Assembly (NCBI GenBank): GCA_029261895.1
Contig: JAJDAK010000013.1
Location: 8,183 to 72,182, forward strand
Direction of reading: 5' to 3'
DNA: 64,000 nucleotides
From: Deltaproteobacteria bacterium
GTDB lineage: Bacteria; Myxococcota_A; UBA9160; SZUA-336
Within the stretch, counting starts at the first letter, position 1; every line of letters begins with the position of its first letter. The translations under genes were made by a program, and so were the position numbers. Of the stretch, positions 11,348-33,078 are shown piece by piece. The notes beneath the pieces were generated by a model. The model had not been told where the DNA came from. It did no database searches and was given only the letters and a program-made list of their open reading frames with translations.

Positions 11348-11459
11348 GGAATTCCCCCCGAAAGATTCGGCAGAAAATTGTAGGGATTTCATCCCTGACT
11401 TGCCCATCTATGCGGCGGCAGAACGACCGCATGTCGCATCTCGTTGTAAACTGGGGCCT

Positions 11460-12263
11460 ATGAAACTTGCTTTGTTGCCAGAAAATGGGTTGGTGGCACC
11501 TCACTACGCGGCGGATGTGGCGATGCTCGCAGAACGCCTGGGGTTTGAATCGCTTTGGTGTCTCGAGCAGGTGATTTTACCGAGCACGACTAAACTTTCG
11601 TATCCGTATTCGGGCAGTGAAAAGCTTCCGATCGAAGACCTGCCACTACCCGACCCGATCACCTGGTTGAGCTTTGCGGCCGGAGTAACGACGAAGCTTA
11701 AGCTCGGCGCGGGCGTGCTGATTTTGCCGCAGCGTAATCCGGTTTTATTCGCGAAGGAACTCGCCACACTCGATCAGCTGAGCGGCGGCCGCGTGTTGCT
11801 CGGTATGGGAATGGGCTGGCTCCGCGAGTCAGGACGGTCGAAAGAGATCGCCTTCGAACCACCCGCACTGCGGATGGATGAATACATAGAAGGCATGCAG
11901 CGCCTCTGGCGCGAGCCGCGTGCGAGCTACGCCGGTAAGCATGTCTTCTTTGGAGACGTGCGTGGGCATCCGCGGCCGGTCAAAGCAGAGATTCCGATTC
12001 TGATCGGCGGAAATTCTGTGGATGCTGTCGCTCGTGCGCATCGCTTGGGATACGGGCTCGCGCCGTTTGGCGCACCTACGTCGGAGATTGAAAACCTCAT
12101 ACGCAGTTCGCAGGTCCCAACGACATGTTTCGGTGCGCCGAATCTTGAGATTGCAAAGCGTTACCGCGAGCTGGGCGTCGATCGCCTGATCGTCCGCACG
12201 GATGAAACTGATCTAGAAACGCTTGAGCGTGAACTTAAGCGTTTCGCTACGGCGCTTGGATAG
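11460..12263 (+). CDS. luciferase-like monooxygenase (LLM) class oxidoreductase, probably F420-dependent
   Basis: The track ORF starts at 11346. I prefer the ATG at 11460 (MKLALLPE...). LGFESLW, LGAGVLILPQRNP...AKELATLDQLSGGRVLLGMGMGW is the LLM TIM-barrel core. The cofactor (F420 or FMN) cannot be decided by eye. Confidence 0.7.
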   Translation: MKLALLPENGLVAPHYAADVAMLAERLGFESLWCLEQVILPSTTKLSYPYSGSEKLPIEDLPLPDPITWLSFAAGVTTKLKLGAGVLILPQRNPVLFAKELATLDQLSGGRVLLGMGMGWLRESGRSKEIAFEPPALRMDEYIEGMQRLWREPRASYAGKHVFFGDVRGHPRPVKAEIPILIGGNSVDAVARAHRLGYGLAPFGAPTSEIENLIRSSQVPTTCFGAPNLEIAKRYRELGVDRLIVRTDETDLETLERELKRFATALG

Positions 12264-15200
12264 AGATCGAACCGTCTTCACCGTCTCCAAAGAAACCATC
12301 ACCACCCGTACTTGTCACCGCGCCGCCCACGCTCGCAGAAACGGATGCGTTAATCGCAATGCGACCTCCGCCACCACCGGTTCCGTCGGCACCGCTACGA
12401 TTCCCACCGTCCGCGCTGACGGCTCCGATGCCTGAATAGGTTTCAACAGCGAGGTTGACGGTACCACCCGAACCTTCACCCGCTCGGCTGCCATTGCCAA
12501 GACCACCGTTCGCTCGAATCGCGCCGTTGTTGATGACGTCGTCCGCGATGATGAGGATCCGTCCACCGCCGTCGCCGCCATCGGTGCCCCCAATTGCACC
12601 GCCACCACTGCCAAGGTCGACCGGGTTCAAGACGTCACCGTACACTGGATTGGGGACACCCGTACCAGCGCTAGTTCCATCTCCACCTAACCCGCCGTGG
12701 CTTCCGCCCGTTTGCGAGGTCGAACCCGTGGTAAATCCGACGGTGGTTCCGCTTTCGCTAGTGTCCTTGCCACCGAGGAACCCAAGTCCCGTAACATCAA
12801 TGGCGCTATTCGGATCGATCACGAGTGTGCCGGTCATCACATCGAGCTTGCCCGCGTAGCTATCGGACGTCTTTTCATGAGTGAGCCGGCCGAATTCCTT
12901 GAGGTCAATCGTGCCCGTCACATCGAGCTGGTCCGACGTATTGAGATGTCCACCACGGCGGAACTCGAGGTTGTCGAAGATGAAGTAACCTACGTATTCC
13001 GCACTAACCGATGCAACACTCGAAAAATCAACACCATTGCTGTTCGGTGTGATGACCGTGATCGAGTTTGCATCGTTTGACGTGATCTCGAAAACTTCAT
13101 CTTGCGATGTATCCGGGTTCACGAAGTTACCCACGAAGCCGTTGGCCAAGAACGGTCCGAGTGCGCCGTCGACGGTGAGCACATCACCCGTGACAGCCGC
13201 AGTGATTCCGGGTCCGATCAGCATCAGGTCGGTCGCAACCGGCCACGTGGCCCCGGGTGTGCCGCCATCGATGATGAGGTCACCAGCCAGTTGCTCGTTC
13301 GTATTCGTAACGATGGTTCCTGCAGCACCATCGGGACCAAAGAAACCATTCCCACCGAAAGCGGAGACGTTGCGCAGGCCACTGAGATCATCGGTTGCGT
13401 CGAGTGAATCCATGTAAATCGCAACGCGACCGCCGCCACCGGCCGTGCCATCGAAACCGCCACGGCTGCCGCCGTTCGCACGGATTTCACCCGTTCCCGC
13501 AAGCATGCCCGTGGTAATCCAAATCGAACCGCCTGAGCCTTCACCCGCGCGTGAGCCGTTACCGAGCCCGCCGTTGGAACGGATCGCCCCATCCACACGA
13601 AGCTCGTTGGTCACGATCAGACGCACGAAGCCGCCGCCGTCGCCACCGTCGGTGCCACCACTCGCGCCACCGCCACTACCGAGGAGGCTCGGGCGCTTGG
13701 GATCCCCATACACCGGATCCGGGAAACCACTGTTGCTATCGCCGTCGCCACCGATGCCACCGTAACTACCACCCACTTGATCATGTGTACCGGTAACGCC
13801 ACCCAGAGTTGTACCACGCTCGCTGCCGCTCTTACCGCCGCGATAGCCACGGCCCGTCACGTCGATTGCGCTACCGGCCTCAACGAAGATCGAATCTGCG
13901 TTGATCAACAATCCTGCTTCGCTCTGCTTTGCGTGCGTCAGCGTTGAGTTCCCGCGGATTTCCAATGCACCGCTCACACTGATGCCCGCTTCGCTCACCG
14001 TGTGCGCACCGTTCCTCAAGATGATGTTGTCGAAGCTAAACCCTGAAGGAATGATTGACGCGTCATCAGGCTCTGAGGTTCCGAAACCATCGATGATGAG
14101 ATCACCGAACGTCTGACCCGGGGTCTTTGTAAAGACGGTTCCGTTTCCACCATCGTCAAAGAATCCGTTGCCACCGAGCACGCTCACGTTGGTCAACGGC
14201 AGCGTCGCCGTGTTATAGCGCAGCGCGATGCGCCCACCGCCACCAGCGGTACCGTCCACGCCATTGCGACTGCCGCCGTCCGCTCGAATGACGCCCGTGC
14301 CGTCAAGTGACGTGGTTTGAATACCGATCGACCCGCCTGAGCCTTCGCCCGCTCGACTTCCATTGCCAAGGCCACCGTTCGAGAGAATCGCGCCATCGTT
14401 CACGATCTCGTTTGCATCGATGAAGATGCGACCGCCGCCGTCACCGCCATCAGTGCCGCCGCTTGCGCCGCCCCCGCTGCCGAGATCGATTGGGTCGGTG
14501 AGGTCACCGTAGATGGGGTTCGGAATAGAGCCGCCCCCAAATTTTCCGTCGCCCCCAAGCCCACCATAGCTACCACCGGCCTGATCCGTAGCGCCCAGGA
14601 CATTCCCGAGCGTTCTACCGGACTCGCTAGTCGCCTTACCACCAAGATAACCGCGAGCCGTCACTTCGATGCGACTGTTGGGATCAATCAGCAATCGATC
14701 CGTAGTGACATCAAGTGTCGCTTCGTACACGAGATTCGATTCTGGATGCGTGAGCAAGCCGAATTCCTTTAGGTCGATCGTGTCATTAACTCGGAGCAGA
14801 TCCGCCAAGATCAGATATCCGCCGCGGCGGAACTCAAGATTGTCGAAAATCCAAGAACCCGCGTAGGACGCACCTACGCCTGCAACCGATGCGAAGTCGA
14901 CGCCATTCCCATTGGGCGTGACGACCGTAATCGAGTTCGCGTCGTTGGAAGCAATCTCGAAGACCTCGGCCTGAACGATATTCGGATTCAGGTGGTGGCC
15001 AACAAAAGCGTTTGGCAGGAATCCTGGCAGCGTGCCGTCGACGGTTAGGCTGTTCGCGGTGACGGCTTGCGCAACACCAGGACCCATAGGTAGCAATGGC
15101 GTTCCATGAGTCGTCGTCTTAGACGACTCAGCATCATCGATGATGAGATCCCCATCGGATTGGCCCGTTTGATGCAGAAAGATCGTTCCGGCCGTGGCAC

Positions 15201-18200
15201 GCGCGAAGAAGCCGATCCCACTGAAGGCCGTGATGTTACGCTGACCGTTCAGGTCATCGAGCGGATCGATGAAATCGTACTCGATCGCGATACGGCCACC
15301 GCCACCACCGGTGCCGTCCACACCATTACGACTGCCGCCGTTCGCGGAGATCGTACCCACACCGGATAGCTTCGATGTGGTAATCCAAATCGACCCACCC
15401 GAGCCCTCGCCCGCACGACTCCCGTTGCCAAGCCCACCATCGGCACGCAACGCACCATCAACGTGGACTTCGTTGCTTACTATCAATCGGAGGTATCCAC
15501 CGCCGTCGCCGCCATCAGTACCGCCGCTCGCGCCGCCGCCGCTACCCAGTCGGTTCGGTCGCTTGGGGTTGCCGTACACCTGATTGGGGATTCCACCCCC
15601 ACCAGAGACGCCATCGCCTCCGAGTCCGCCGTAACTTCCACCTGACTGGGACGTAGAACCCAGAATATCGCCGAGTGTTCGACCCGACTCGCTGGTTGCC
15701 TTGCCACCACGATGGCCACGCCCCGTGACGTCGATCTCGGAGCCGAGCTCGACAATCACGGAATCCGCCGTGATCAGTAAGCCGTTGGGATCCTCGCTCG
15801 GATGCGTGAGTACAGAGTCACCCGTCAACAGTAGCGTGCCGCTTATCACGATCTTCGAACGCGCGATCACACGCGCACCATTGATGAGCGTGAGGTTGTC
15901 GAAGACCTGCCCCGCGGGCAACACGAGATCGGTAAACGGCGAGCCCGGGCCGACGCCGCTGATGACGAGATCACCGTCGACCTGGTCGTCCTGCTTCAGA
16001 AAGACGGTGCCGTCTGCGCCGTCATCGAAGAACCCATTGCCACCCTGTGCGGTAATGTTACCCAGGTTGGCGGTCGTCAAATCCAAGTACGAGATCGCGA
16101 TACGCCCGCCGCCGCCACCGGTACCATCGACACCATTGCGACTTCCACCATCGGCTTGGACGGTTCCCATACCCGAGAGCGTGCGCGTGGCGATGTTGAT
16201 ACCGCCGCCGCTGCCTTCGCCGGCGCGGGAACCGGCGCCCAATGCGCCGTTGCTTCGAATGGATCCGTCGACCGCGACGTTGATCGCGTTGAGCAGAAGC
16301 AGGCCGCCGCCATCACCTCCGTCAGTGCCGCCGCTTGCTCCGCCGCCACTACCGAGTTCCATCGGGTTAGTGAGATCGCCGTAGACGGGATTGGGTGTGC
16401 CACCACTACCGGAGACACCATCGCCGCCCAGGCCGCCATAGCTGCCGCCGGTTTGCGAAGTGGACCCTGGCACGTTGCCGAGCGTTTGACCCGACTCACT
16501 CGTCGCTTTACCTCCGAGATAACCGAGGCCCGATACATCGACGGAACTCGTCATATCGACCGTGAGCGTCCAAACGTCCAAGTCGAGCTCGAACTCGTCC
16601 ACGAGGTCTGTCTTGCGGTGCGTTAGTTTACCGCCGTTCACGATTTCGACGTTCCTAAAGGCGTGCGCGCCGACGATCGTGACCGTCGCACCATCGATAC
16701 GTATGTTTTGATCATCGAAGATCGGAGCCAGGATTTCCGTATCAAGGTTGAACGTCGCGACTGCGGTGCCCGTGCTGAAAGTCGTGGCCGGCAGAATGTC
16801 TGCGACTGGCTTGCCGATATTCGGATCGGTCATCACATCTTCGAGATTACCCGCGGCATCCACACCCAGCGTGAAGAATTCGAAGTCGCCGTCTCCGCCC
16901 ATGCGCGTGGAGTCGAATTCGATGGTTCCGTTAGAACCGCTCTGCGGTACGAACTCGCCGAGCGGATTCCCGCCCGCAGGGTCGGTAAAGCGGTTGAATG
17001 TGCCGATGCCGTCGCGCCTGAAGAAGAGCCGCACGTGATCGATGTCCGCGACGCCGTCCGTGATTTGGTAACCCACCGTCGTTGTCGCGGAGCTACCCGG
17101 ATTGCCAACGCTAATGACTTCAGTCATCGGTGGTGTGATATCCGCATCGGTGATCAGAATGTCGACCGGTGCTGCATCGGTTTCATTACCCGAGGCATCG
17201 CGGGCAAATGCCGTGATGCGAACATCGGGATCGGTGAGGCCGAAGGGCACGTCGAAGGTGAGCGTGGCGTTCGCATCGTTGCCCGAGACCACAATCGAGT
17301 CCGAGGTCACGAGTGCGCCTGAAGTATTGAAACCCACTTCCGCAAGTGCGACGTCATCCTGCGCGGTCACACGCAGGGTAACGGTATCGCCGAAATTAAA
17401 TTGCGTATCGGGGACGGGGCTTAAGAGTTGCACTGTTGGTGGCGTGTCATCGACCACCGTGAGGGAGATCGAATCGACCGGGGAAACGCCTCCGCTGGTA
17501 TCTTCAGTGAAGGCGTCGATGTCAATCGTACTGCTGATCGGCGCATTGGCGTCCACGTTGAAGTTGAAGAGCTGAATCGTATTTACGGACGGCGTTCCAA
17601 GGACTCTAACTTCACTGAACGTGGCGCTTCCCGTCACATCAACATCGAAGATGGAAACGCCGCCCGGCGCGTCCGTTCCCCGGACCGAAAGCGTAATCTG
17701 TTCGCCGCGTTCGAACTCCGCGCCGTCACCGGGCGATAGAATCTCAACGGTCGGCGGCGGATCGGACGCGATATCTACACTGACCGGGATCTCGATCGGA
17801 ATCTCACCGCTGCGAGATACGAAGACTGATGTGCTACCTTCGCCGATCGCGGTGACCAGTCCCGAGGTGTTGACCGTGGCGACACTCGGATTGCCGATGG
17901 AGTAAGCATTGCCCTCGGTGAGCGGCGAAGAGCTTCCGTCACTGAAAAATCCGGTCACACCGATCTGCACTGTCTGCTGCAGGAACGTGAACGAAATGGT
18001 GGTCGGAGCCACCGTGAACGAATCTAGCGTAACGACATCCACATTCACCGGGATCTGATCCATAACACCGTTCAGCGTAGCGCTGATGTTCGCCGTACCA
18101 TCGGCGATCGCGAGCACGCGACCGGTTCCGCTTACAGACGCAGCCGCGATATTGTCGGAGTCATAGGCCACTTGGTTGGTGACATCCGTAGACGATGCGT

Positions 18201-21144
18201 CACTGAAGAACGCCGTCACCGTCACATCTGCGAAATCAGCCAACGCGTTGAACGTGAGTGAAGTCGGCGTGATCTGCAAACCGGTCAGTACCGCTGCGAC
18301 CGGAGCCACAACATCAGTCGGCGCGCTCGGGCTCGCGGATTCCGAGAGACTAAACGCAATTAATCGAAGAACGTCCCCGGAGATTGCGTTGACGGTGGTA
18401 GTGAAGGCGCCTGTGGCGTCAGCGAAGACGGTAGATTCGGTGGCATCGGTGAGGTTGGTGACGTCGATGCGAGCGCCAGGAACGCTCGTGCCTGTGATGG
18501 TGGTTTCACCGTTGCTATCCGGAACTGAGACTGTACTCACGAGCGGGGCGGCAGGCGGGTTGCCAGTTGGCTGATCCAGGACGATAAAATCGAGTACCGC
18601 GTCAGGGTTTGCGGCGCTATTCGTCACACCGACGTTATTCGTGGCTTGAATGATGACCTGATGCGCACCCGCGGCGAGCGCGGCGGTATCGACCAAGAAG
18701 GCCTCGCTACCCTCGAAGAGTGGCGTACCACCGAGCGTATCGAGGAAAAAACTCACGGACGCGATGCCCACCGGGTCGTCCGCATTGCCGTTGACCGAGA
18801 ACTGCGAACCCACGATGTACTCGGCACCATCGGCTACACCGACGAATTCAACCATCGGCTCGTTCGGATTCTCGACCAGCTCAAAGCTAAACGTGTCTTC
18901 GGTTGTTTGGCCGAGACCGTCCTCCGCGACGGCGCGAATGGTATGCGGCCCCAGTGGCAACTCGCTGGTTCGCAACGACGCCTGGAACGGTGAGATGAAC
19001 ACCGTCTTAAAGGGTTCGAGTTCGGCGTCGAGGAAGTACGTGATCCGCTGCACCGCACCGGAAACAAACTCGGGAATCACCGTGACCGAAATACCCTGCA
19101 GGACCGGATCATTCGGATCATCGGGCAGGATCAATGTTGGCGGTGCATTCGAGGTCGCGATCACGGCAGCGACGGTCGCGTCTTGACGGTTGCCCGCCTT
19201 ATCGAAAGCGCTGCCCTTAAACTGATAGGTATGGCCGGGCACGAGTCGACCTGAATCGATCGCAAACACGCAGGGCAAGGTCGTCGAATCAAAGACGGTC
19301 TTCTGATCGATCAACTCAAATGTGGGATTGTTGGCATCCTGGTCTTGGATCCGCAGTTCAACGCGATCGAGTCGACTGCCTTGGTCGGTGGGGAATGCGT
19401 CGATCTCTATGATCTGCCCGGGCAAGACGTTCGTCGGGTCGACCGGCGGTTGAATCGCCATCGTGAGGAACGGTGGCGTCGTGTCGTTCGTTGGATCCGT
19501 CGTCGTAAACGTGCTGGTCCACTCATTGAAGAGTTGATTGCCGTCGAGGTCTCGAATGCCGTTGCTGACAAAGATGGTGTACTCGGTGTTGCCATCGAGC
19601 TTGCCGAAGTTATCGAAGCGCTGCCAAACCGCCGCCGTGCGTTCCAAAATGATATCGGTCTGAATAAACCCGGGAACGGCCTGGCCCAGATCATCGAAGA
19701 CAGTGAACGTTGATTCCGACTTGATCGTGTCGTCATCCATCTTCTCGCTGAAGAACGCGACTACGGGCGAATCGGGATTGATGCCGAAACTATTTGGGGT
19801 CGGTAGCACCGAGACGGTGGGAATGCCCTCGGGCTCACCGAGATCCGGCGGGAATTTTCCTACGACACAACCCAAGTTCCCAACGAAGACCTCAAGCGCG
19901 ATGTTCTGATCTGAGACGCCCATGCATGAGCTCAAAGGTCCGGTCGAAAACGGTGTAACGGTAAAGATCTCAAGCACTTTTTGACCGGGCAGAATATGGC
20001 CCAGGTCTCGCGTCTGCGAGCCTTCGATCAATACGCAATCCGGTTCCATCGTCGCTTCGTTGATGGTGCATTCCGTGAGTTCCGCATCCGCACCCACGTC
20101 GAGTTCAAGCGAGGCATAGAGCGCAGGAATCTCATCGGTGTTGGTGATCTCAACACTGAGTTCGTACGGTTCGAATGCCGTGACCGTATCTGGGTGCACG
20201 ACTTTGACCGTGAACTGCGGCGGACCTTTGACCTCGACCTCCGTCAATGCCGAGCCACTGAACGGAATCGGATCGTTGGGATCGATGCCGGGGCCCGTGA
20301 GCTCGCCACCAAAGTCCACGCGCACGGGCTGAACACCGATCTCATCACCGCGAATGATGAACTCTCGTTCCTTTTGTGCGGGCGATGTCGGAGTTCCCGG
20401 AAGAATCGTGTTGAAGAGCGCGATGCCGTCAGCCGGGAAGGTATTCGAGAGCCCGCCTTCGGGAAAGTCGATCATCGCCGTCACGTTCTCCAACGTGAAG
20501 ATGCCCGATGTGTTCATCAGCAGCAGACGCACGCTGAAGAATTCTTTCAGTGTCTTGATATCACCCTGAATGATAATGACACCCGGGATTCGGGGTCGAA
20601 TCTCTAAGTCGCCGGGCGGCCTAGTTTCAAAAACGATGATCTGCGTATCCGAAACCCTTCCTGCTCGACCGCCGCCGAGCACACGCTTCTTTAACAGAAT
20701 CTCCTCGAATTCTTCCTCTGGTACCTTGGGAATCGCGACGGGAATATCGAATACGAAGGATTCCTTCGCGATCGTGAGCGCGATCGCGAAGCTCGACACG
20801 TTGAAGTTCTCAGGGTCGTCGAGGTCGATGATGCCGTCTTCGACGAGTTGCTCGATCTCCTCGACCGAGAGCCGTTCGGCTTTAACTTCGGCGACAACGA
20901 TTTCATCCAGGGAGATCTGTGTAATTTCGAGGTCGCGCGAAACTTCATTGCCCGCATTGTCTTCCGCAGTCACGGTGAAACGGTTCACCGCGTTCTTACG
21001 CAGCGGGACATTCGGGAAGACCCACTGCCCGGCCGTGTTTGGATCCTGCGGACCAAGTCGCGCGCCACCGTTCAGCGAGATCGTCGTGTCCGCCGAGGCG
21101 GTCATCGCGAAGAGCAGCATCAGCGTGGTGAAGAAAGGCCTCAT
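12247..21144 (-). CDS. giant secreted protein (2,965 aa): Ig-like N-terminal half plus five glycine-rich beta-solenoid-like modules
   Basis: The track ORF 12247..21207 is trimmed to the ATG at 21144 (MRPFFTTLMLLFAMTASA-DT, a Sec signal peptide). That ATG overlaps the upstream stop as ATGA. Domains by eye: an SbsA/Big_5-like Ig domain (approx 19498-19821); further Ig-like units with TPP.V..L.P boundaries; two Big_2 domains (approx 17773-18285); then the Gly-rich array at 12250-16719. No C-terminal sorting signal recognised. Confidence 0.85.
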   Translation of the reverse strand: MRPFFTTLMLLFAMTASADTTISLNGGARLGPQDPNTAGQWVFPNVPLRKNAVNRFTVTAEDNAGNEVSRDLEITQISLDEIVVAEVKAERLSVEEIEQLVEDGIIDLDDPENFNVSSFAIALTIAKESFVFDIPVAIPKVPEEEFEEILLKKRVLGGGRAGRVSDTQIIVFETRPPGDLEIRPRIPGVIIIQGDIKTLKEFFSVRLLLMNTSGIFTLENVTAMIDFPEGGLSNTFPADGIALFNTILPGTPTSPAQKEREFIIRGDEIGVQPVRVDFGGELTGPGIDPNDPIPFSGSALTEVEVKGPPQFTVKVVHPDTVTAFEPYELSVEITNTDEIPALYASLELDVGADAELTECTINEATMEPDCVLIEGSQTRDLGHILPGQKVLEIFTVTPFSTGPLSSCMGVSDQNIALEVFVGNLGCVVGKFPPDLGEPEGIPTVSVLPTPNSFGINPDSPVVAFFSEKMDDDTIKSESTFTVFDDLGQAVPGFIQTDIILERTAAVWQRFDNFGKLDGNTEYTIFVSNGIRDLDGNQLFNEWTSTFTTTDPTNDTTPPFLTMAIQPPVDPTNVLPGQIIEIDAFPTDQGSRLDRVELRIQDQDANNPTFELIDQKTVFDSTTLPCVFAIDSGRLVPGHTYQFKGSAFDKAGNRQDATVAAVIATSNAPPTLILPDDPNDPVLQGISVTVIPEFVSGAVQRITYFLDAELEPFKTVFISPFQASLRTSELPLGPHTIRAVAEDGLGQTTEDTFSFELVENPNEPMVEFVGVADGAEYIVGSQFSVNGNADDPVGIASVSFFLDTLGGTPLFEGSEAFLVDTAALAAGAHQVIIQATNNVGVTNSAANPDAVLDFIVLDQPTGNPPAAPLVSTVSVPDSNGETTITGTSVPGARIDVTNLTDATESTVFADATGAFTTTVNAISGDVLRLIAFSLSESASPSAPTDVVAPVAAVLTGLQITPTSLTFNALADFADVTVTAFFSDASSTDVTNQVAYDSDNIAAASVSGTGRVLAIADGTANISATLNGVMDQIPVNVDVVTLDSFTVAPTTISFTFLQQTVQIGVTGFFSDGSSSPLTEGNAYSIGNPSVATVNTSGLVTAIGEGSTSVFVSRSGEIPIEIPVSVDIASDPPPTVEILSPGDGAEFERGEQITLSVRGTDAPGGVSIFDVDVTGSATFSEVRVLGTPSVNTIQLFNFNVDANAPISSTIDIDAFTEDTSGGVSPVDSISLTVVDDTPPTVQLLSPVPDTQFNFGDTVTLRVTAQDDVALAEVGFNTSGALVTSDSIVVSGNDANATLTFDVPFGLTDPDVRITAFARDASGNETDAAPVDILITDADITPPMTEVISVGNPGSSATTTVGYQITDGVADIDHVRLFFRRDGIGTFNRFTDPAGGNPLGEFVPQSGSNGTIEFDSTRMGGDGDFEFFTLGVDAAGNLEDVMTDPNIGKPVADILPATTFSTGTAVATFNLDTEILAPIFDDQNIRIDGATVTIVGAHAFRNVEIVNGGKLTHRKTDLVDEFELDLDVWTLTVDMTSSVDVSGLGYLGGKATSESGQTLGNVPGSTSQTGGSYGGLGGDGVSGSGGTPNPVYGDLTNPMELGSGGGASGGTDGGDGGGLLLLNAINVAVDGSIRSNGALGAGSRAGEGSGGGINIATRTLSGMGTVQADGGSRNGVDGTGGGGGRIAISYLDLTTANLGNITAQGGNGFFDDGADGTVFLKQDDQVDGDLVISGVGPGSPFTDLVLPAGQVFDNLTLINGARVIARSKIVISGTLLLTGDSVLTHPSEDPNGLLITADSVIVELGSEIDVTGRGHRGGKATSESGRTLGDILGSTSQSGGSYGGLGGDGVSGGGGIPNQVYGNPKRPNRLGSGGGASGGTDGGDGGGYLRLIVSNEVHVDGALRADGGLGNGSRAGEGSGGSIWITTSKLSGVGTISANGGSRNGVDGTGGGGGRIAIEYDFIDPLDDLNGQRNITAFSGIGFFARATAGTIFLHQTGQSDGDLIIDDAESSKTTTHGTPLLPMGPGVAQAVTANSLTVDGTLPGFLPNAFVGHHLNPNIVQAEVFEIASNDANSITVVTPNGNGVDFASVAGVGASYAGSWIFDNLEFRRGGYLILADLLRVNDTIDLKEFGLLTHPESNLVYEATLDVTTDRLLIDPNSRIEVTARGYLGGKATSESGRTLGNVLGATDQAGGSYGGLGGDGKFGGGSIPNPIYGDLTDPIDLGSGGGASGGTDGGDGGGRIFIDANEIVNDGAILSNGGLGNGSRAGEGSGGSIGIQTTSLDGTGVIRADGGSRNGVDGTAGGGGRIALRYNTATLPLTNVSVLGGNGFFDDGGNGTVFTKTPGQTFGDLIIDGFGTSEPDDASIIPSGFSFDNIILRNGAHTVSEAGISVSGALEIRGNSTLTHAKQSEAGLLINADSIFVEAGSAIDVTGRGYRGGKSGSERGTTLGGVTGTHDQVGGSYGGIGGDGDSNSGFPDPVYGDPKRPSLLGSGGGASGGTDGGDGGGFVRLIVTNELRVDGAIRSNGGLGNGSRAGEGSGGSIWITTGMLAGTGEIRANGGSRGGFDGTAGGGGRVAIYMDSLDATDDLSGLRNVSAFGGNGFFGPDGAAGTIVTNTNEQLAGDLIIDGGTPGATWPVATDLMLIGPGITAAVTGDVLTVDGALGPFLANGFVGNFVNPDTSQDEVFEITSNDANSITVITPNSNGVDFSSVASVSAEYVGYFIFDNLEFRRGGHLNTSDQLDVTGTIDLKEFGRLTHEKTSDSYAGKLDVMTGTLVIDPNSAIDVTGLGFLGGKDTSESGTTVGFTTGSTSQTGGSHGGLGGDGTSAGTGVPNPVYGDVLNPVDLGSGGGAIGGTDGGDGGGRILIIADDVINNGAIRANGGLGNGSRAGEGSGGTVNLAVETYSGIGAVSADGGNRSGADGTGGGGGRIAINASVSASVGGAVTSTGGDGFFGDGEDGSISIQAP
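12250..16719 (-). repeat. coding super-repeat: 623/624-aa (1,869/1,872-nt) unit present about 2.4 times, containing five glycine-rich modules
   Basis: Anchor strings are IFDNLEFRRGG at 14841 and 12972, and IFDDQNIRIDG near 16719. The Gly-rich cores lie at roughly 16087-16527, 15286-15723, 14215-14655, 13414-13851 and 12349-12786. Confidence 0.85.
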
Positions 21145-24100
21145 GGCAGCTGAAGCTCCCGTCGTGACAGACCCACGGGCTCCATCGGGATGACGACGGC
21201 CTGCCACTCGTCTTCGCCGGTCGCTACGTTCGAGAGCTGAACCCGCGCACGGATCTCTCGGCGCTGATGATCGAACTCGGTCGGATCCAGCACGAAATGC
21301 GGATTGCCGTTACGGTCGAGCCTCACCAATACGTCGTTCTCCTTGCTGAAGTTCACCGTCTTCATCGCACGGATTTCGTTGGTCTTCTTTACAACCACCG
21401 GCAGCAGGAACTGCTGAACACCCGATCGAGTAGATACCACGAGCTTCTTGCGTTCCTGATCCAGCTCGATATCGAATGGCGAATCGTTGACACTAAGGAT
21501 GGGCACTGCGTTCGGCGGGTCGGCCAAGACGTCTTCGAGTGCCCTGAGCTCGTCGATCGTGATCGTGAAGATGTCTCCCGAGTTGAAATCGGCAAAGTAG
21601 AAGTTGCCGGCTTCATCAAACGCCATCCCTGAGAACTGGCGACCCGATTCAATGATCAAGGCGAGAAGCGAACCGGTGCCCAGACTCACGTTGTGGGTAA
21701 TCAGCCAGATTTTATCTTTATCGGAGAGATAGATGCGTTGGATCTCGCTGCCCTCTTCCCGCGGCAGAATTTCCATATCCGACGGCCCACTGAGATCCAA
21801 AAGGTCGCTTTCGATCAACGTCTGCCCGACCAGGCGGATCCTTTGAAATTGCGTGCCATAAGAGTTGGGGAACGCTTCCGCGGCTCCGACCGGAATCGCC
21901 TTGATCTGTTTGCGCCCCGCCCCTCCGGAGTTGTTGTTGTTATCGAGGAAGTCGATATTCGCGATGAAGTAAGTCGGCACGTCCTTACCCGCCAGATTGA
22001 ACTCGCCGATCGCACCCGTAATTGGATTGGCGGGTCGCGCGTAGAGGAGCATCTGACTGAAATAGTTGATCGAACCCGCAAACTCGCGACGGAAGTTCTC
22101 TCCGGGGAACCAGCGGAAGTTGCGACCGCCGTAGCGTTGGTTCGAATTGAAGTTATTGGCGTAGATCAAGTCGTTCGGGTCCACGGATAAAAATTCGGGA
22201 GGGAATCCGGCACGGATCTCAAAGAAGTCCTCGCCTGCATCGGGATATAAGGTAGTAAGCCAACCCTGCTTGCGTTCGTCGAGCTGTTCACCGGTCGCCG
22301 GGTCAATGACGGGTTGACCGTCGTCATCCACCACCAATGTACCCTTGCGCCCCGCAAGAATACCGCGGAAGTTATTCAAGTTCGGATGCGCTTCGATGAC
22401 AATCGGTGCAGTTTCACGGCTAAAGTTCGTGAACATGTGGACCGCAGAGAAATCGCTGTAGATGACCTTGAACGCTTTGCTGAAATCGTTCCAAACGTCT
22501 TTGAGCGCGATGAAGTTTGCACCCGCGGACGCGACCTGTGCACCGCGTTGGATGCCCTTCTTGTTACGAACTAACACATTCTGTTGGTTGCGAGAATTTG
22601 CGCGCCGGTTTTGCATGCCGACTTCAGCCCGCTGATAGTCGACTTGCGCGTTTGTCCGATTGCGCTCCAACGAGCGCTGAACTTCAGCGCTGTCCTTAAT
22701 CCGAGCCTTTTCAGCATCCCACTCCGGCCCAACGCGCTCCCGTACCATATCGTCGGATAGGCGATTGACCTCGGTATTGGCCGCCTCGAGCTTCGGACGC
22801 GCATCCTTAATCGTTTCCTTTTCGAGTTCGATCGTGTTGTTCACGAACTCATCAAAGATCGCAAGGTCGGCTGGGTTACTCGGATTCACATCGAAGTCGA
22901 ACGGAATGACCGAACCATTCGGCTGGATCTGGTCGAATTGGACTTCAACCGTCCGAGTGGAACCGAAGTTCCGAAGCCGCTGCATATCAGTTTTGAGCTG
23001 ATCGATATCCGCAAGCGAGTCCTGGGCCAGGTTGATGCGAGTTTTTTGGAACTCCGCGTTCTTGGTTTCAAGCGCGATGCCGGTGAGGTTCGTTTCCACC
23101 CCAGGGGGCAAGGTCCGCAATGGATCGCCGAGAATGTCTCTTGCTCGCCCGTTCGCATCCGATTCGACGCGCACGAGGTCGAAAGGGTCCGAACCACTCG
23201 CACCGTGCTCAATCGCAAGGCGCTTCAGCTGATCCGCTTCGCGGATACCCTGCGCGTGCTCGTTGCGGAAACCCGCGAGGTCGGTCGAACTTCGACTACG
23301 GTGCCGCGATTCAGCGGCCCCCAACGCATCCATCTCATAGCGAGATTGATGGATCGCCTCATCGAAATCGACTTGAAAGTCTCGCTGAAAGTCAGCACGT
23401 GCGCGCATTTCAATCAGTGCAGCTTCGGATTCGGTAAGGTCGAATTTAAACTTCACAATCGTACTGTCGCTCACCGTATCAGGGATCGAAGTGTTCACAC
23501 CTAATTGCGACTCGAAGGGGAACGCGATCCGTGCCGCATTCAGACTGAACTCCGCCTGGGAAACGTACTGCACGGTTGCGATGCGGAAGAAGTGCACGCC
23601 GATCCGAAGGCGTGCTACCGGAATCACGAATTGCAACTTGCCGGGGTTGTCTAACGATTGTTCAAGCGTGGCAAAGTTGACCAACGTCGCGTTGCCGATG
23701 TTGAGTGTCTCTGGGTTATTGAATTCAAAGAGCTGATAGGTAAAGCGCACCCATTCATCGGGAATCCCCGGTGAAAACGGTGGCGCGGATTCCGCGCCAC
23801 TGGGCGAGAACACCAGAATAAACTTATCGCCCTCGATTCGGCTCGACTCCGGGATCGGTGGCGGCGGTTCAACGCTTTGCGCAGCGGCGGCCAAACCCAA
23901 GCCGAAGAGCAGCTTTTGAATGATGGCATCCATCACACCGCCGAGCAGCGCGGTTACCGCGGCAGTCGCTGCAACCGCACCCAACGCACCGCCCGTCGCC
24001 CCCGCAGAAGCCGCGAGTGCGACCTGCATCGCTACCGCGATGGCCGCGCCAATCGCATTACCGATCGTCACTTCAGCCAGGAATGCCTTGCCGGAGTAAC

Positions 24101-27100
24101 TCATGATACGCGTAAAGGTTCGAGCGCGGAACGGGTTGTCGACACCACCCGCGTTATTGAGTGTGATGCCACCCTCTTGCGCGTGCGCCACACCGGTGCC
24201 GATGAAGTCCTCAACAAGTGAATCGATTGCGGCGTAGAATTGGCTGCGCGACTCGAGCGAACGCGGCGCGCCGGCGACAACGGAATTCGGATCCACGCCC
24301 TGGTCGATGATGATTTCATCGATCGATTGTTCGATGGTGGTCTGATTGAAGACCAGGAAGCTCTGAAGGAGTAACGCGGCCTGCACGCGGTTGAGGCGCG
24401 TGTTGGGCGAAAGCAGCGGCGGCTCGACGCTGACCTGGGTACCGTCATTAAAGAGTGTGAGGGCCATCGCGTTGAGCGGGTTTTCAGGTTCTGCCCAAGC
24501 GACGTTGACGGCTTCCTGCCAACCGAGAATGGCGTTTTCGAGCACCAGGTCTTCGCCGAAGAAGCTGAAGATATTCGTCAGCATCCAGACGATGTCTCGG
24601 AGCGTGTAGACATCGCCGCCGATCAGTGCGCGTGCTTGAGCTTCGAGACCCTTGGGCGTGAGGGAAAGAATGCCCTCGCCAACGATATTCGGATTGAGCT
24701 GATTGCCGTCTTCATCGAGCAGCCCGACGTCGTTGCCACCGACCGTGAGATAGACATCGCGCACCAACTCGATGGCTTGATCAAGATCGAGGCCACCGCC
24801 GTCTTTCGCGCTAAAGCCGCGATCCAGAACACTCGCGGGTGAAGGTTCTGCCGGCAACGAACCCGCGGGTGCCGCAGGGCGTGCCAGAGCGCGCAAGCTG
24901 ATTTCATCGCCGAGGCTGATCTCCTGGTTGGTGTCGACCGCGATTTCGATCTTATTGACCTTGAAGTTCGGCGCCATCACGAGCAGCGTTTGAATGCCAT
25001 CCGGCACGCCGTCCAAGAAGAAGCTGCCATCCGCGCCTGTCGTCGTGGAGATATTGGTGCCGTTGATGGTGATCAACACGCCAGCAAGCGGTGCCTGCGT
25101 GAATGGATCAATGACCTTACCCGCAACACTGGCCGCGCCTTCGGTCACATTGAAGGCGACCGCCGAATAAATCTCACCGTCGGCTTCCACCATCTTGACC
25201 TGGCGTTGACCGACTTCGGCGTCTTCGTCGATTTGCACCGTCGCATGTGCTGATGTCGGCGACAGAATCTCAAAGTCGGTGACTTCGGTACCGGGACCGA
25301 AGTCGGGCACGCTCTTTCCAGCCTCAAACGCTGTATTCAACGCGTTGAGGTCGACCTCAACGGTGCGTCCCTGTCGTCCGGTCGCAGGACTCAGTCCGGT
25401 GATGAAGGCGGGAATCTCAGGTGCGGCCGGCTGCCCCGGCTCGCCCGTCACGTTACCCGAGATCGTTTGGCGCGTGCGGAACGTCGGCGAAACCGTCTCG
25501 TCAACCACGAGCTCCAGCACCTCTGCCGGTGGGGTCACGTCATTGATGAGAATCGTCACCGTCAGCGGAACCATGACGGTGCCATCGCTGACTTCGAAAT
25601 CTACGTCAACGCTACCCGACTGATCGAAACTCGGCCGAAATGTGAAGACGCGCGTGATCTCGTTGAAGAAACTATTTTCAAGTGCCAGCCCCGGTGCGCT
25701 GAAGCGGAGTGGATCGCCGTCGGTATCCGTCGCTGAAACCGCAAAATTCAGCTCCTGGCCTTCATCAACGGTCGGCGAACCCGCAGGATCGAAGATCGGG
25801 GGTTGATTGTCCTTGAGGACCTCAACAGTCACCAACGTCGAAACGTTTTCGTTCGCGAAACGCGCGCTGAAGGCAAGCGTGTGAAACCCGACCTGATTGG
25901 GATCAGGCGTAAAGGCGAAGAGGCCTGAATTCAGATCCGCGTTCGATGGCAATGGGTCCACACCGAGAATCGCATCCGCGTAATTTGAACTGACCGGGAG
26001 TTGCAGCTCGTCACCCACATTGACCTGGAACGCGCCACTCGGTGAAAGCAATGAGAGCGGGTCATCGATAATGGTCAGATCAAATGACTGCCGCGCGTTC
26101 AAGCCATTCGGGTCTTGCACACGCAGGATCAACGTAACCGGACCGACGGCACCCGTCGGGGGTGTCCAAACAACCAGGCCGGAATTCGGATCGATCGTCA
26201 TGCCAGTCGGTGTATTGGCATCAAAGAGGTAAGTGAGCGGATCCTGCTCAGGATCGAACGCTTCTACGTCGTAAGTGTAGAGCTCGCCGACTTTGGCATA
26301 GGGCTGGGGAAACGACGTGATGATCGGAGGATCGTTCGTCGTCCCTACATTGATCGAGTAAATCTGCTTCGATGCCTGACCCGCTGCATCGGTGACGCGA
26401 ACCTCGACATTGTGATTGCCAAGTTGGCCCTCGCGCGGAACCCAGCTCACCTTCCCCTCGCTCGACATACTCATGCCGGCGGGGCCAGCACCCAAAGTGT
26501 AGAACAGCGCCGCTTGCTCGGGATCTTCCGCTAATACGGGATAGTCGTAGATGCGATTCTCGAATCCAGTAACAGGCGGCGTCGAAAGAATATTCGGTGG
26601 CAAATTTCCGGCGCAGAGCGCCACGTCGTCGACTTCGCCATTGCAGTCATCGTCGATCTGATTCTCACAGAGCTCCGGCAACGGCGCACCGGCTTCGCAG
26701 GTTTGGAGTTCACCAAAGAGACAGTTGTCGACGGTCCTGAAGCAAGCACCGATGCCGCAGCTGCTTTGGCCGAGCTCGTCATCGATCTCGCCGTCGCAAT
26801 CGTTATCGATCCCGTCACAGGTTTCGATCTCAGGATTCGTCGCCGCACAGATGGAATCACCAAAGGGACCATCGGGGCAAGTGGTCAGACCATTAGCGCA
26901 AACACCCTCGAGCCCGGTCTCACAAACCTCACCCACGATGCAGCTGACCACCTGGCAGAGTGGCGGATCATCGACCACGCCATTGCAGTCGTCGTCGAGA
27001 TCGTTCGAACAAACCTCGGTGACCGCGCCCGCATTGGGGTCGCAGAGCTGAGGCTGACCGTCCTGGCAGTTATCGACGCTCTTCGCGCAGATCCCGATGC

Positions 27101-27695
27101 CACAACTGGTCTCGCCGAGCTCTTCGTCGACGAGATCATCGCAATCGTTGTCGACACCATCACAGACCTCGTCGTCGGGGATACAAGCGGGCTGGTTGGG
27201 ATCATTCGGATCGTTGGGGTCGATCGGCGTAACACAGAGTTGCTGGATGCCGGGCGCAAGACCGAGCAGCGCACGGTGAATCGTGAGCCAGTCTTCGATA
27301 TCGCAGTCGTCGGATCCCTGAACATTGCACTTCTCGGGTGCCGCCATGCCGGGGCCGAGCTCGGCAAGGCTGCGCTGAATAATGGTGGCGTCATTCAGAT
27401 GAACCAGACCGTCGTTGTTTACGTCACCGCATTCGCAGCCGTCGCCACGACCGTTGGGAACGAACGTGCCTAAACCGCCGGAATCCCGCTGATCCGCATT
27501 CGGGGTATCGGGACAGTTGTCGACGGTATCCAGTACCCCGTCCTGGTCCCGGTCCTGCGCATAGACCGTGCCCGAAGCGAGCAGGAGCACCAGGCCCACG
27601 ATCGCGGGCCAGAGGAAGTTTGAATTGATAGGACGCTGCTGCACAACCACCGATCCCGATACGAGTCTTAGCCAAAAATTACGTCGCAATCCCAT
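21141..27695 (-). CDS. giant secreted/anchored multidomain protein (2,184 aa): TSP3, dockerin-like, Cys-rich MopE-type repeats, cadherin-like Ig, IPT, CarboxypepD_reg, plus a ~1,240-aa uncharacterised C-terminal region
   Basis: The track ORF starts with GTG at 27719; ATG at 27695 (MGLRRNFW...) is preferred. Residue numbers follow the track. Hydrophobic core and cleavage-like site: LLLASGTVYA-QD. TSP3 repeat DRDQDGVLDTVDNCPDTPNADQRD (aa 56-80). Dockerin-like GDVNNDGLVHLNDATIIQRSL. Two copies of a CDG.DNDCD...DEELG..SCG.G.C...DNC unit (aa 178-370). Four putative-Ig/cadherin-like units (aa 375-730). IPT-like segment (aa 770-860). GKVIDPFTQAPLAGVLITINGT...GADGSFFL is a carboxypeptidase-regulatory-like fold. 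The rest is unassigned. Confidence 0.85.
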   Translation of the reverse strand: MGLRRNFWLRLVSGSVVVQQRPINSNFLWPAIVGLVLLLASGTVYAQDRDQDGVLDTVDNCPDTPNADQRDSGGLGTFVPNGRGDGCECGDVNNDGLVHLNDATIIQRSLAELGPGMAAPEKCNVQGSDDCDIEDWLTIHRALLGLAPGIQQLCVTPIDPNDPNDPNQPACIPDDEVCDGVDNDCDDLVDEELGETSCGIGICAKSVDNCQDGQPQLCDPNAGAVTEVCSNDLDDDCNGVVDDPPLCQVVSCIVGEVCETGLEGVCANGLTTCPDGPFGDSICAATNPEIETCDGIDNDCDGEIDDELGQSSCGIGACFRTVDNCLFGELQTCEAGAPLPELCENQIDDDCNGEVDDVALCAGNLPPNILSTPPVTGFENRIYDYPVLAEDPEQAALFYTLGAGPAGMSMSSEGKVSWVPREGQLGNHNVEVRVTDAAGQASKQIYSINVGTTNDPPIITSFPQPYAKVGELYTYDVEAFDPEQDPLTYLFDANTPTGMTIDPNSGLVVWTPPTGAVGPVTLILRVQDPNGLNARQSFDLTIIDDPLSLLSPSGAFQVNVGDELQLPVSSNYADAILGVDPLPSNADLNSGLFAFTPDPNQVGFHTLAFSARFANENVSTLVTVEVLKDNQPPIFDPAGSPTVDEGQELNFAVSATDTDGDPLRFSAPGLALENSFFNEITRVFTFRPSFDQSGSVDVDFEVSDGTVMVPLTVTILINDVTPPAEVLELVVDETVSPTFRTRQTISGNVTGEPGQPAAPEIPAFITGLSPATGRQGRTVEVDLNALNTAFEAGKSVPDFGPGTEVTDFEILSPTSAHATVQIDEDAEVGQRQVKMVEADGEIYSAVAFNVTEGAASVAGKVIDPFTQAPLAGVLITINGTNISTTTGADGSFFLDGVPDGIQTLLVMAPNFKVNKIEIAVDTNQEISLGDEISLRALARPAAPAGSLPAEPSPASVLDRGFSAKDGGGLDLDQAIELVRDVYLTVGGNDVGLLDEDGNQLNPNIVGEGILSLTPKGLEAQARALIGGDVYTLRDIVWMLTNIFSFFGEDLVLENAILGWQEAVNVAWAEPENPLNAMALTLFNDGTQVSVEPPLLSPNTRLNRVQAALLLQSFLVFNQTTIEQSIDEIIIDQGVDPNSVVAGAPRSLESRSQFYAAIDSLVEDFIGTGVAHAQEGGITLNNAGGVDNPFRARTFTRIMSYSGKAFLAEVTIGNAIGAAIAVAMQVALAASAGATGGALGAVAATAAVTALLGGVMDAIIQKLLFGLGLAAAAQSVEPPPPIPESSRIEGDKFILVFSPSGAESAPPFSPGIPDEWVRFTYQLFEFNNPETLNIGNATLVNFATLEQSLDNPGKLQFVIPVARLRIGVHFFRIATVQYVSQAEFSLNAARIAFPFESQLGVNTSIPDTVSDSTIVKFKFDLTESEAALIEMRARADFQRDFQVDFDEAIHQSRYEMDALGAAESRHRSRSSTDLAGFRNEHAQGIREADQLKRLAIEHGASGSDPFDLVRVESDANGRARDILGDPLRTLPPGVETNLTGIALETKNAEFQKTRINLAQDSLADIDQLKTDMQRLRNFGSTRTVEVQFDQIQPNGSVIPFDFDVNPSNPADLAIFDEFVNNTIELEKETIKDARPKLEAANTEVNRLSDDMVRERVGPEWDAEKARIKDSAEVQRSLERNRTNAQVDYQRAEVGMQNRRANSRNQQNVLVRNKKGIQRGAQVASAGANFIALKDVWNDFSKAFKVIYSDFSAVHMFTNFSRETAPIVIEAHPNLNNFRGILAGRKGTLVVDDDGQPVIDPATGEQLDERKQGWLTTLYPDAGEDFFEIRAGFPPEFLSVDPNDLIYANNFNSNQRYGGRNFRWFPGENFRREFAGSINYFSQMLLYARPANPITGAIGEFNLAGKDVPTYFIANIDFLDNNNNSGGAGRKQIKAIPVGAAEAFPNSYGTQFQRIRLVGQTLIESDLLDLSGPSDMEILPREEGSEIQRIYLSDKDKIWLITHNVSLGTGSLLALIIESGRQFSGMAFDEAGNFYFADFNSGDIFTITIDELRALEDVLADPPNAVPILSVNDSPFDIELDQERKKLVVSTRSGVQQFLLPVVVKKTNEIRAMKTVNFSKENDVLVRLDRNGNPHFVLDPTEFDHQRREIRARVQLSNVATGEDEWQAVVIPMEPVGLSRRELQLP
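26610..27188 (-). repeat. two tandem Cys-rich units of the CDGxDNDCDGxxDE (MopE-like putative metal-binding) type, coding
   Basis: CDGVDNDCDDLVDEELGETSCGIGICAKSVDNCQDG...CSNDLDDDCNGVVDD aligns with CDGIDNDCDGEIDDELGQSSCGIGACFRTVDNCLFG...CENQIDDDCNGEVDD. Cys spacing is conserved between the copies. Confidence 0.75.
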
Positions 27696-27760
27696 GCCCG
27701 GCGGGCCGCAGTCTATCACTGCGATTGCTGAACTGGAACGTTCGAGGTTATGATCCAGCC

Positions 27761-28360: not shown

Positions 28361-28377
28361 GGTTCTATTTCTATCGA

Positions 28378-28413
28378 CCGAGCAGAGAGCTGAGAACTCG
28401 ACCTCGGCTTTTT
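28378..28413 (+). terminator. weak candidate rho-independent terminator after the PEP-CTERM gene
   Basis: CCGAG (28378-28382) can pair with CTCGG (28403-28407), and an inner GAG/CTC pair is possible. A CTTTTTC run follows. The stem is short and interrupted. Confidence 0.3.
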
Positions 28414-28489
28414 CAACGGTTGGCCCACGTTTGGTTGACAGTGGCGACAGCGGAGGAACGTGGCGCCAAACCAAATGGGGGATTCGAAC

Positions 28490-28789: not shown

Positions 28790-28798
28790 CGCTCACCC

Positions 28799-30493: not shown

Positions 30494-30517
30494 CAAGTGG
30501 TGATACTCTAGTCCGCG

Positions 30518-32560: not shown

Positions 32561-32580
32561 GCACGGTGTCCCGCCGAGTA

Positions 32581-32949: not shown

Positions 32950-33078
32950 ACGGACTGCATCGGCGTCACTGAGCTCCTTCTCAATACCACCCAAGTCTTT
33001 ACCTCTGCCAACAGCGTATATTCGCCAACACTTGGGTACATCGCTGTCAAAGCTATACTTGCGGCTAGGAGGACACAG

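Follow-up and report, generated by a model that had tools for sequence, protein, structure and literature searches.

A pair of overlapping giant genes beside a small PEP-CTERM gene: one copy of a possible exosortase-linked surface cassette found across many bacterial phyla

When a Gram-negative bacterium displays a giant surface protein, the explanation is nearly always a device of the type I, type V or type IX secretion system (T1SS, T5SS and T9SS). Among described systems, those to be compared with the locus reported here include the giant T1SS repeats-in-toxin (RTX) adhesins (LapA, MpIBP, SiiE and the Aeromonas RTX adhesin) – multi-thousand-residue proteins with arrays of immunoglobulin (Ig)-like extender domains, a glycine-rich β-solenoid near the C-terminus and a presumed role at the surface or in biofilms – together with the passenger β-helices of autotransporters and TpsA/FHA proteins, and the cohesin–dockerin pairs of cellulosomes. 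A further system is that of exosortase and PEP-CTERM: proteins bearing this tail are trafficked by exosortase to the exterior of the Gram-negative cell, take part in aggregation at its surface and are needed for floc formation (PMC12188702, PMC9850573). Here we describe a locus in 64,000 nucleotides of a Deltaproteobacteria bacterium (GenBank assembly GCA_029261895.1, contig JAJDAK010000013.1, positions 8,183 to 72,182; hereafter the window), in which two giant genes, A and B, lie beside a small PEP-CTERM gene. Our preferred reading, which we put a little short of an even chance, is that the window holds one copy of a widespread uncharacterised cassette: a small PEP-CTERM gene plus the translationally coupled giants, whose products form an exosortase-linked fibre at the surface or in the matrix. 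By kind, the cassette proteins are placed among the giant bacterial surface or matrix proteins; the cassette family, its PEP-CTERM linkage and the glycine-rich solenoid module described below appear to be undescribed.

The two giant open reading frames (ORFs) lie on the minus strand at 12247-27719 and cover 15,473 nt, or 24% of the window. Gene A (21141..27644) encodes 2,167 aa from a GTG at 27644, which is also the database gene call; its longest ORF begins at 27719 (2,192 aa), an ATG at 27695 is an alternative start, and the stop codon, TGA, occupies 21143-21141. Gene B (12247..21144) encodes 2,965 aa. Although its mechanical ORF reaches back to a GTG at 21207, translation is taken to start from the ATG at 21144-21142, because a signal peptide (MRPFFTTLMLLFAMTASA|DT) opens there and because the N-termini of homologues align exactly at this position. 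The start of B therefore overlaps the stop of A in the sequence ATGA (minus-strand letters ...GCTGCCATGAGGCC...). The original prediction, made from the sequence of the window, had described this ATGA-joined pair and had named an assembly error at the junction as grounds for abandoning it. Coordinates and overlap were reread and hold; an independent Logan assembly (SRR15505518, a 45.9-kb contig) carries identical genes with the identical 4-nt overlap, and the junction is therefore not an assembly artefact. The closest relative of gene A, P0122, likewise has a 4-nt overlap with its own B gene (3,004 aa). The A/B junction is thus neither a chance feature nor an assembly error.

Two further observations concern the ends of gene B. 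A weak stem-loop spans the ATGA junction (window 21138-21156; six pairs, three of them G-C) and may mask the start codon of B until ribosomes finish A; it may also be due to chance, because terminator-like hits in the region are not above shuffle expectation (a promoter and terminator scan of 11800-28500 gave counts below that expectation and was uninformative). At the other end, B shares its last 17 nt (window 12247-12263) with the 3' end of a gene that converges on it and encodes a luciferase-like monooxygenase (11346-12263, plus strand).

Homologues of B number more than 190. The top 120 are mostly full-length and share 40-51% identity with B, and 73 of the 120 have a length of 2,940-3,020 aa with five glycine-rich units. 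When relatives were sought in one genome per species, B relatives were present in 102 species genomes from at least ten phyla, and 80 loci were retrieved; carriers belong to the Myxococcota, Desulfobacterota, Nitrospirota, Acidobacteriota, Verrucomicrobiota, Hydrogenedentota, Lentisphaerota, Binatia, Bdellovibrionales and Chromatiaceae, among others (the Chromatiaceae carriers include the culture-collection strain Thiohalocapsa halophila DSM 6210). By tblastn with A segments, the gene immediately preceding B is A-like in nearly all loci whose upstream DNA is long enough. Among the 54 loci with a same-strand upstream ORF the gap between the genes is 21 nt or less in most: 18 stand at -4 or -1 nt and one at -8 nt, giving 19 overlaps. 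The order A-then-B and the tight junction are kept across phyla, and the pairing, whose absence from relatives would have spoken against a two-gene system, is thus a property of the family. Source names of B-family proteins are "hypothetical", "Ig-like domain-containing" or similar, or are absent altogether: the B family is undescribed, in keeping with the earlier suggestion of a system of an undescribed type.

Variants of the arrangement occur. In 13 related loci an additional gene of 660-1,270 aa, absent from the window, separates B from an A that is shorter or divided (among them L001, 6845-9937; L006, 5990-9802; L017, 2724-4706; also L031, L037, L043, L048, L062, L064 and L071; L numbers denote related loci). 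The product of the extra gene of L001 is weakly caspase- or legumain-like (Peptidase_C13 6e-8, Peptidase_C14 1e-6, "caspase, EACC1-associated" 1e-7) and also contains Glucodextran_B and CarboxypepD_reg domains. Two metagenome-assembled genomes hold two B-family loci each (L031 and L040 in the Victivallales genome CAZWQJ01; L034 and L078 in the Myxococcaceae genome CAYGXT01), and some genomes therefore have two copies of the cassette. In distant giants of 1,300-2,900 aa the N-terminal head of B is found internally (L077, 2356-10164; L079, 8318-15373; L080, 8672-17302; L081, 2793-6764; L082, 1062-7235): these have neither glycine-rich units nor an A gene, and the three that were scanned (L077, L079 and L080) contain DUF11 or ASH-type Ig domains. 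An N-terminal dockerin motif is present in the giants of L079, L080 and L081, Pfam Dockerin_1 matches those of L077 and L079, and a cohesin-like PEP-CTERM small protein stands directly before each of the L079-L081 giants.

The third gene of the cassette adjoins A. In the window the small gene (27761..28360, plus strand) is divergent from A and encodes a secreted protein of 199 aa, composed of a signal peptide, a core of ~145 aa and a PEP-CTERM tail (~28256-28336). VPEP, a hydrophobic helix and basic residues are read directly from the translation of the tail (...SMPVPEPRAWVCFAMGLALVGWRVLHR..., ...VPEPRAWVCFAMGLALVGWRVLHR), and it is the combination of signal peptide, VPEP, transmembrane helix and basic tail that likens this neighbour to the floc-forming PepA of Zoogloea and Aquincola. 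Hidden Markov models (HMMs) match the tail weakly (Pfam PEP-CTERM E=0.03, 14.9 bits vs a cut-off of 20.7; 3e-4 to 0.056 for four NCBIfam PEP-CTERM families), and the small protein of a related locus, L005, matches NCBIfam floc_PepA at 2.3e-7, also weakly and below the cut-off. At least 20 related loci have a gene for a PEP-CTERM protein of 200-275 aa beside the A-like gene, for the most part in the same orientation; such a gene goes with the A/B pair in most loci, and 20 of 25 adjacent small proteins match Pfam PEP-CTERM. PEP-CTERM proteins are estimated to account for roughly 1% of the genes of a genome; on this estimate the adjacency lies far above chance. The original prediction had listed the PEP-CTERM protein as part of the island around the giants, and such a role as mere context is not borne out: it is a recurrent member of the cassette. 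No account of giant proteins partnering a PEP-CTERM protein emerged from a literature search. The small proteins were also considered as a single family, which is ruled out: they fall into at least four groups whose cores have no relationship detectable by hhalign. Unlike PepA and its kind, A and B themselves are without PEP-CTERM, and no exosortase or exopolysaccharide genes are adjacent.

One group of the small proteins points to a means of attachment. Pfam Cohesin is matched by 4 of the 25 (reaching 4e-7), and the cohesin-like group comprises L005, L059, L073, L079, L080 and L081, to which a local HMM added L063 and L076. Searched against the PDB, the profile of this group (alignment A8) matched almost only cellulosomal cohesins (best 1.7e-4). 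In six of these eight loci (L005, L063, L073, L076, L079 and L080) a giant with a dockerin motif close to its N-terminus lies directly downstream; the giant of L081 has the motif as well, and L059, where the A gene was not called, was left out of the dockerin check. A literature search found no paper that names PEP-CTERM, cohesin and dockerin together.

The N-terminus of the window's A protein may provide the other half of such a pair. Following the signal peptide (27558..27644, minus strand; MQQRPINSNFLWPAIVGLVLLLASGTVYA|QD from the GTG at 27644) are a thrombospondin type-3 repeat and then a dockerin-like module (27267..27557, minus strand), with calcium-binding loop-helix motifs (GDVNNDGLVHLNDATIIQRSL...). 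With the first 200 aa scanned alone, Pfam returns TSP_3 at 3.7e-5 and Dockerin_1 at E=7.2e-4 (20.1 bits vs a cut-off of 22.9, model positions 2-56 of 57). When aa 55-140 were compared with the PDB as a single sequence (phmmer), 13 of 15 matches were dockerin modules or dockerin-bearing cellulosomal enzymes, the best being 4fl4_A (4.5e-5); the second repeat of the module is degenerate. Dockerin_1 is found in 10 of 30 N-termini of A homologues (Pfam, best 1.1e-10). Compared with cellulosomes, the likeness is a dockerin-like module at the N-terminus of A, together with a cohesin-like small protein carrying a cell-anchoring signal in eight related loci. The differences are several: the hosts of the cassette are Gram-negative, the anchor is PEP-CTERM and not an S-layer homology domain or sortase signal, the cargo is a giant Ig/NHL protein and not an enzyme, the dockerin is N-terminal, and the window contains no cohesin that we could find.

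The remainder of A combines modules of known type with a conserved C-terminal part. A variable adhesin-type region (24912..27182, minus strand) contains 30 Cys residues and, according to Pfam, Cys-rich MopE repeats, two He_PIG domains, Big_9/cadherin-like domains and CarboxypepD_reg, after which Pfam has no match over ~1,240 aa. Within this tail lies the best-conserved stretch of the A family, A_mid (24345..24842, minus strand; 30-40% identity by tblastn across loci), in which the motif D..G..D..G.Q.NP is invariant (invariant columns of alignment A2); it matches nothing in Pfam or the PDB. Further on, a six-bladed β-propeller of the NHL type is predicted at 21390..22292 (minus strand), its profile-matching core mapped by hmmalign to 21402-21803, and a small β domain follows it at the C-terminus. 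The A2 profile, built from 24 A C-terminal parts, matched the designed Pizza6 NHL propellers in the PDB at 9.5e-12, the PknD sensor propeller at 1.6e-6 and TRIM2/3 NHL at 6e-6, with two to six matched stretches per match; one A homologue reaches Pfam NHL (4.2e-5). The earlier description of A as adhesin-type modules followed by ~1,240 unassignable residues therefore stands for the modules and only in part for the tail. The relationship to NHL propellers (the PknD sensor, TRIM-NHL and teneurin NHL; profile 1e-11 to 1e-6 over the conserved C-terminal region) is at the level of the domain only: A is without a kinase, TRIM or YD shell. Between loci the C-terminal part is just 20-34% identical, and word-indexed homologue searches with it (as a single sequence and as a 24-sequence profile) returned six proteins.

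Upstream of the propeller lies an Ala/Gly-rich hydrophobic stretch of ~70 aa (23877..24086, minus strand), which may be a membrane-interacting hairpin. A Kyte-Doolittle scan found it in 7 of 24 A homologues, belonging to one A subfamily only; a rough insertion free energy is +1.35 kcal/mol for the window and below zero for L003, L023, L026 and L045.

Gene B begins with a signal peptide (21091..21144, minus strand; MRPFFTTLMLLFAMTASA|DT). Those of A and B were judged by eye and on a crude hydrophobicity scale, which supports the hydrophobic core of A; read in this way, both products do begin with Sec-type signal peptides, as had been claimed. Behind it is the most conserved part of the protein, the head B_N (19825..21090, minus strand; 50-60% identity), which corresponds to the N-terminal 440 aa and includes a disordered acidic loop at aa 129-181. 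C407 and C426 are invariant, and C359 and C370 are present in at least 90% of sequences (alignments A1 and A6). AlphaFold2 models the head as tandem β-sandwiches (predicted local distance difference test score, pLDDT, 81.9), for which Foldseek finds, at E ~1e-4, transglutaminase C-terminal barrels, macroglobulin (MG) domains of complement and α2-macroglobulin, and ASH/PapD-like sandwiches – generic MG/Ig-type sandwiches only, with no enzymatic or secretion domain among them. An exhaustive HMMER search found the head in 385 of 1.84 billion cluster representatives at E<=1e-3, some of which carry it internally in other giant architectures.

The head is followed by an Ig-like stalk (16705..19824, minus strand) in which Pfam recognises Big_5, three Big_7, Big_6 and two Big_2 domains ahead of a conserved Fn3-like domain; run on B as a whole, Pfam reports Big_13, Big_5, three Big_7, Big_6 and Big_2, and then nothing over ~1,490 aa with a glycine content of 22.6%. 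An Ig-like half succeeded by ~1,490 aa of glycine-rich repeats is what the original prediction had seen. NCBIfam adds nothing for B, and a whole-B profile matches the PDB on Big_2 domains only. The C-terminal part consists of five glycine-rich units (12250..16704, minus strand), modelled as β-solenoids and arranged as (a, b, linker domain) twice plus a, with a period of 624 aa and unit motifs at positions 1541, 1810, 2165, 2433 and 2788. The two periods are 60% identical as protein and ~68% as DNA, the five-unit layout is visible in the consensus of 29 aligned homologues, and in every homologue inspected B ends flush with unit 5, without a sorting tail.

One period (aa 1440-2110, 671 aa) was modelled by AlphaFold2 with a pLDDT of 92.7 and a predicted template-modelling (TM) score of 0.90: the model combines solenoid-like strand ladders with long ordered glycine-rich stretches that have no DSSP strands. 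No Pfam or NCBIfam family matches the units, and Foldseek finds nothing in the PDB below E=0.08; the non-significant list is headed by β-helix proteins with TM-scores of 0.24 or less. Significant structural matches come solely from the library of viral models, BFVD, and are to uncharacterised "collagen-like" or fibre proteins of giant viruses and phages (5e-7 to 8e-4, TM 0.27-0.37). Those to Pandoravirus (S4VX73), Orpheovirus (A0A2I2L380) and prasinoviruses have E-values of 5e-7 to 4e-5 over ~310-350 columns at 16-19% identity; these likenesses are between predicted models only, and the window has no viral context. As modelled, the unit is a glycine-rich solenoid module of ~270 aa without a solved structural relative. 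The long strandless stretches have pLDDT values above 95 and might pack in a polyglycine-II-like manner.

How might these parts work together? Given their N-terminal Sec-type signal peptides and conserved cysteines, A and B are extracytoplasmic. According to our hypothesis the three products would assemble into a fibre at the cell surface or in the matrix that is connected with the exosortase/PEP-CTERM pathway. Sorted by exosortase, the small protein would sit nearest the cell as anchor or partner. The attachment of A would be non-covalent, and its dockerin would provide it in the window and in roughly one in three relatives: for at least one subgroup we infer a cohesin–dockerin tether, and for the A protein of the window we infer a tether by analogy with it. 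Translational coupling would supply A and B in a fixed proportion and the two would bind each other, most likely through their most conserved parts – the propeller and C-terminus of A and the head of B – while the rigid glycine-rich solenoids of B would form the distal shaft. Passage across the outer membrane would use a general pathway encoded elsewhere, for example the type II secretion system or an exosortase-associated export route, and the likely role would be aggregation, matrix structure or adhesion. The most specific version of this hypothesis is an undescribed exosortase-linked surface assembly running from the PEP-CTERM anchor to a dockerin-bearing A and on to a fixed-length B with five solenoid modules of new fold; it is a good deal more tentative, and taken as a whole we regard it as doubtful.

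Several findings weigh against an anchored fibre. The cores of the small PEP-CTERM proteins, which belong to at least four groups, are not detectably homologous by hhalign, and that of the window has no relatives that could be recognised (hhalign against the groups, phmmer against the ORFs of 83 loci, and a metagenome scan); when hhalign compared the window's small protein with the cohesin-like profile, the PEP-CTERM tail alone was aligned (the query being a single sequence with no profile behind it). Run as a local HMM, the cohesin-like profile matches nothing in the six-frame ORFs of the window. About two-thirds of A homologues, including the closest relatives of the window's A, are without a dockerin, and there is therefore no single tether mechanism for the whole family; conversely, L010, L014, L015 and L072 have a dockerin-bearing A without an adjacent PEP-CTERM gene. 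Among the 30 neighbouring ORFs scanned in the window there are no exosortase (Xrt/EpsH) or secretion genes, and none recur in the other loci. Finally, B keeps a near-constant length and 43-51% identity from phylum to phylum, which is unusual in an adhesin; fast-evolving adhesins are a poorer comparison for it than a structural element or ruler.

Two alternatives make use of these same findings. Co-transcription may be all that joins A and B: each would be a giant secreted adhesin or matrix protein in its own right, with no complex between them, and the PEP-CTERM gene would reflect a shared regulon or neighbourhood. We consider this unlikely, while granting that heterogeneous and unrelated small-protein cores, a small gene that in the window is divergent and not co-oriented, a dockerin in only about a third of A proteins, and distant B_N-containing giants without any A gene would all be expected from it. 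It does not account for an A-then-B order and tight junction kept in at least ten phyla despite a C-terminal identity in A of only 20-34%, nor for the 20 or more loci in which a PEP-CTERM gene adjoins the A-like gene (co-oriented and immediately upstream, or divergent as in the window), a number far above chance on the assumed figure of ~1%. Less probable again is a structure integrated into the envelope – an S-layer, for instance, or a sheath, or a scaffold anchored in the inner membrane – in which A is held in a membrane by the Ala/Gly-rich hairpin and B is an element of fixed length. The nearly invariant length of B (73 of 120 homologues at 2,940-3,020 aa with five units) suits this idea, as do transmembrane-like segments at the same place in A of L003, L023, L026 and L045 and a weak NCBIfam match to an anammox S-layer glycoprotein in the CarboxypepD_reg region. 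That match, however, falls on a generic domain (29.6 vs a cut-off of 1,400 bits); 17 of 24 A homologues lack the hydrophobic stretch, which is marginal in the window (+1.35 kcal/mol); and dockerin, TSP3 and Cys-rich modules are what extracellular proteins typically contain.

The remaining alternatives are known systems, and both are very improbable. Delivery of a contact-dependent or polymorphic toxin, in the manner of CdiA/TpsA, Rhs or teneurin-like proteins, is largely refuted. Giant size, a β-solenoid in B, the weak likeness of the propeller of A to the teneurin NHL domain (E 0.009-0.15) and the match of the Big_2 repeats of B to a bacterial teneurin-like protein (9ifo, 1.5e-61) recall such proteins, but the match to 9ifo is confined to tandem Big_2 Ig domains and was set aside. 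Pfam, NCBIfam and the neighbouring ORFs scanned yielded no RHS/YD repeats, toxin domain or immunity gene; there is no TPS (two-partner secretion) domain, the N-terminus of B being modelled as β-sandwiches and not as a TPS β-helix; and B ends flush with a conserved structural repeat, without a variable C-terminal tip. Of the two-component surface fibre, adhesin or contact-dependent system first proposed, the conserved coupled unit accordingly survives and the contact-dependent part does not. Just as improbable is a LapA-type T1SS RTX adhesin, an autotransporter or a T9SS cargo: giant Ig arrays with a C-terminal glycine-rich β-solenoid recall RTX adhesins, and the Foldseek list for the glycine-rich unit is headed by autotransporter passengers and the TPS domain of EtpA, but these last matches have E>=0.08 and TM<=0.24. 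In Pfam and NCBIfam neither A nor B matches a TPS domain, autotransporter barrel, HemolysinCabind, T9SS C-terminal domain or PEP-CTERM at E<=0.01; neither has a lipobox (regular expression) or a PEP motif ([VILAT]P[ED][PAGS]) in its last 60 aa. RTX-like GGxGxD nonapeptides are absent from A, and in B there are two isolated copies and no tandem block (shuffled mean 0.47, maximum 3). Both proteins have N-terminal Sec signal peptides, not a C-terminal T1SS signal. B shows no Pfam match to a C-terminal 12-strand β-barrel and ends inside its fifth glycine-rich unit in the homologues inspected. No POTRA/TpsB neighbour and no ABC transporter, membrane fusion protein or TolC gene is found among the scanned ORFs of the window, and none recurs in the 80 loci. 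Scans and structure models thus agree with the original prediction that the classical devices are missing from both proteins; its statement that there is no anchoring device of any kind was too strong in view of the dockerin-like module of A and the recurrent PEP-CTERM neighbour. These tests essentially exclude both toxin delivery and the known export classes.

The comparison with known giants can now be drawn more sharply. A and B differ from the T1SS RTX adhesins in having Sec signal peptides and in being without tandem RTX nonapeptides, T1SS genes and an N-terminal retention module, and the cassette is a two-protein system of strongly conserved length. With TpsA/FHA and autotransporter passengers the likeness is that the units of B are modelled as β-solenoids; the cassette is without a TPS domain, TpsB partner or β-barrel, the best TM-score is 0.24 or less, and the coils of B are glycine-rich with long ordered stretches that lack regular strands. 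The cassette is thus without T1SS, T5SS or T9SS devices, and yet it is kept in more than 100 species from phyla that matter in the environment, among them sulfate reducers, Nitrospirota, Myxococcota, Acidobacteriota, Verrucomicrobiota and purple sulfur bacteria. It would tie giant proteins to the poorly understood exosortase/PEP-CTERM pathway and, in some loci, offers a cohesin–dockerin tether that is open to testing; in Thiohalocapsa halophila DSM 6210, a named culture-collection carrier, the system is experimentally approachable. If the anchored-fibre reading is true, the cassette would be a Gram-negative, non-enzymatic counterpart of cellulosome-style anchoring and would explain how giant Sec-dependent proteins are retained at the surface without such devices.

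The 30 flanking ORFs that were scanned encode ordinary metabolism and regulation. Beside the small PEP-CTERM gene (28460-33387) lie genes for a STAS protein, a fusion of response regulator, SpoIIE phosphatase and anti-sigma kinase, a TonB-dependent receptor (weakly matching PqqU) and a PilZ protein, and another PilZ gene is at 335-1237. The partner-switch, TonB and PilZ genes had been thought to fit a surface or biofilm island. They do not recur in the 80 other loci and are ruled out as members of the system, and the argument for a biofilm island from these genes therefore fails. An ORF of 398 aa at 33530-34726 has no Pfam family and matches only the ScyD/ScyE family, very weakly (E=0.048). 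Two envelope-related genes that are not conserved with the cassette lie ~5 kb downstream of B: they encode an OmpA-family protein with a von Willebrand factor A domain (6185-7264) and a tetratricopeptide repeat protein with a weak glycosyltransferase-9 match (4699-6114).

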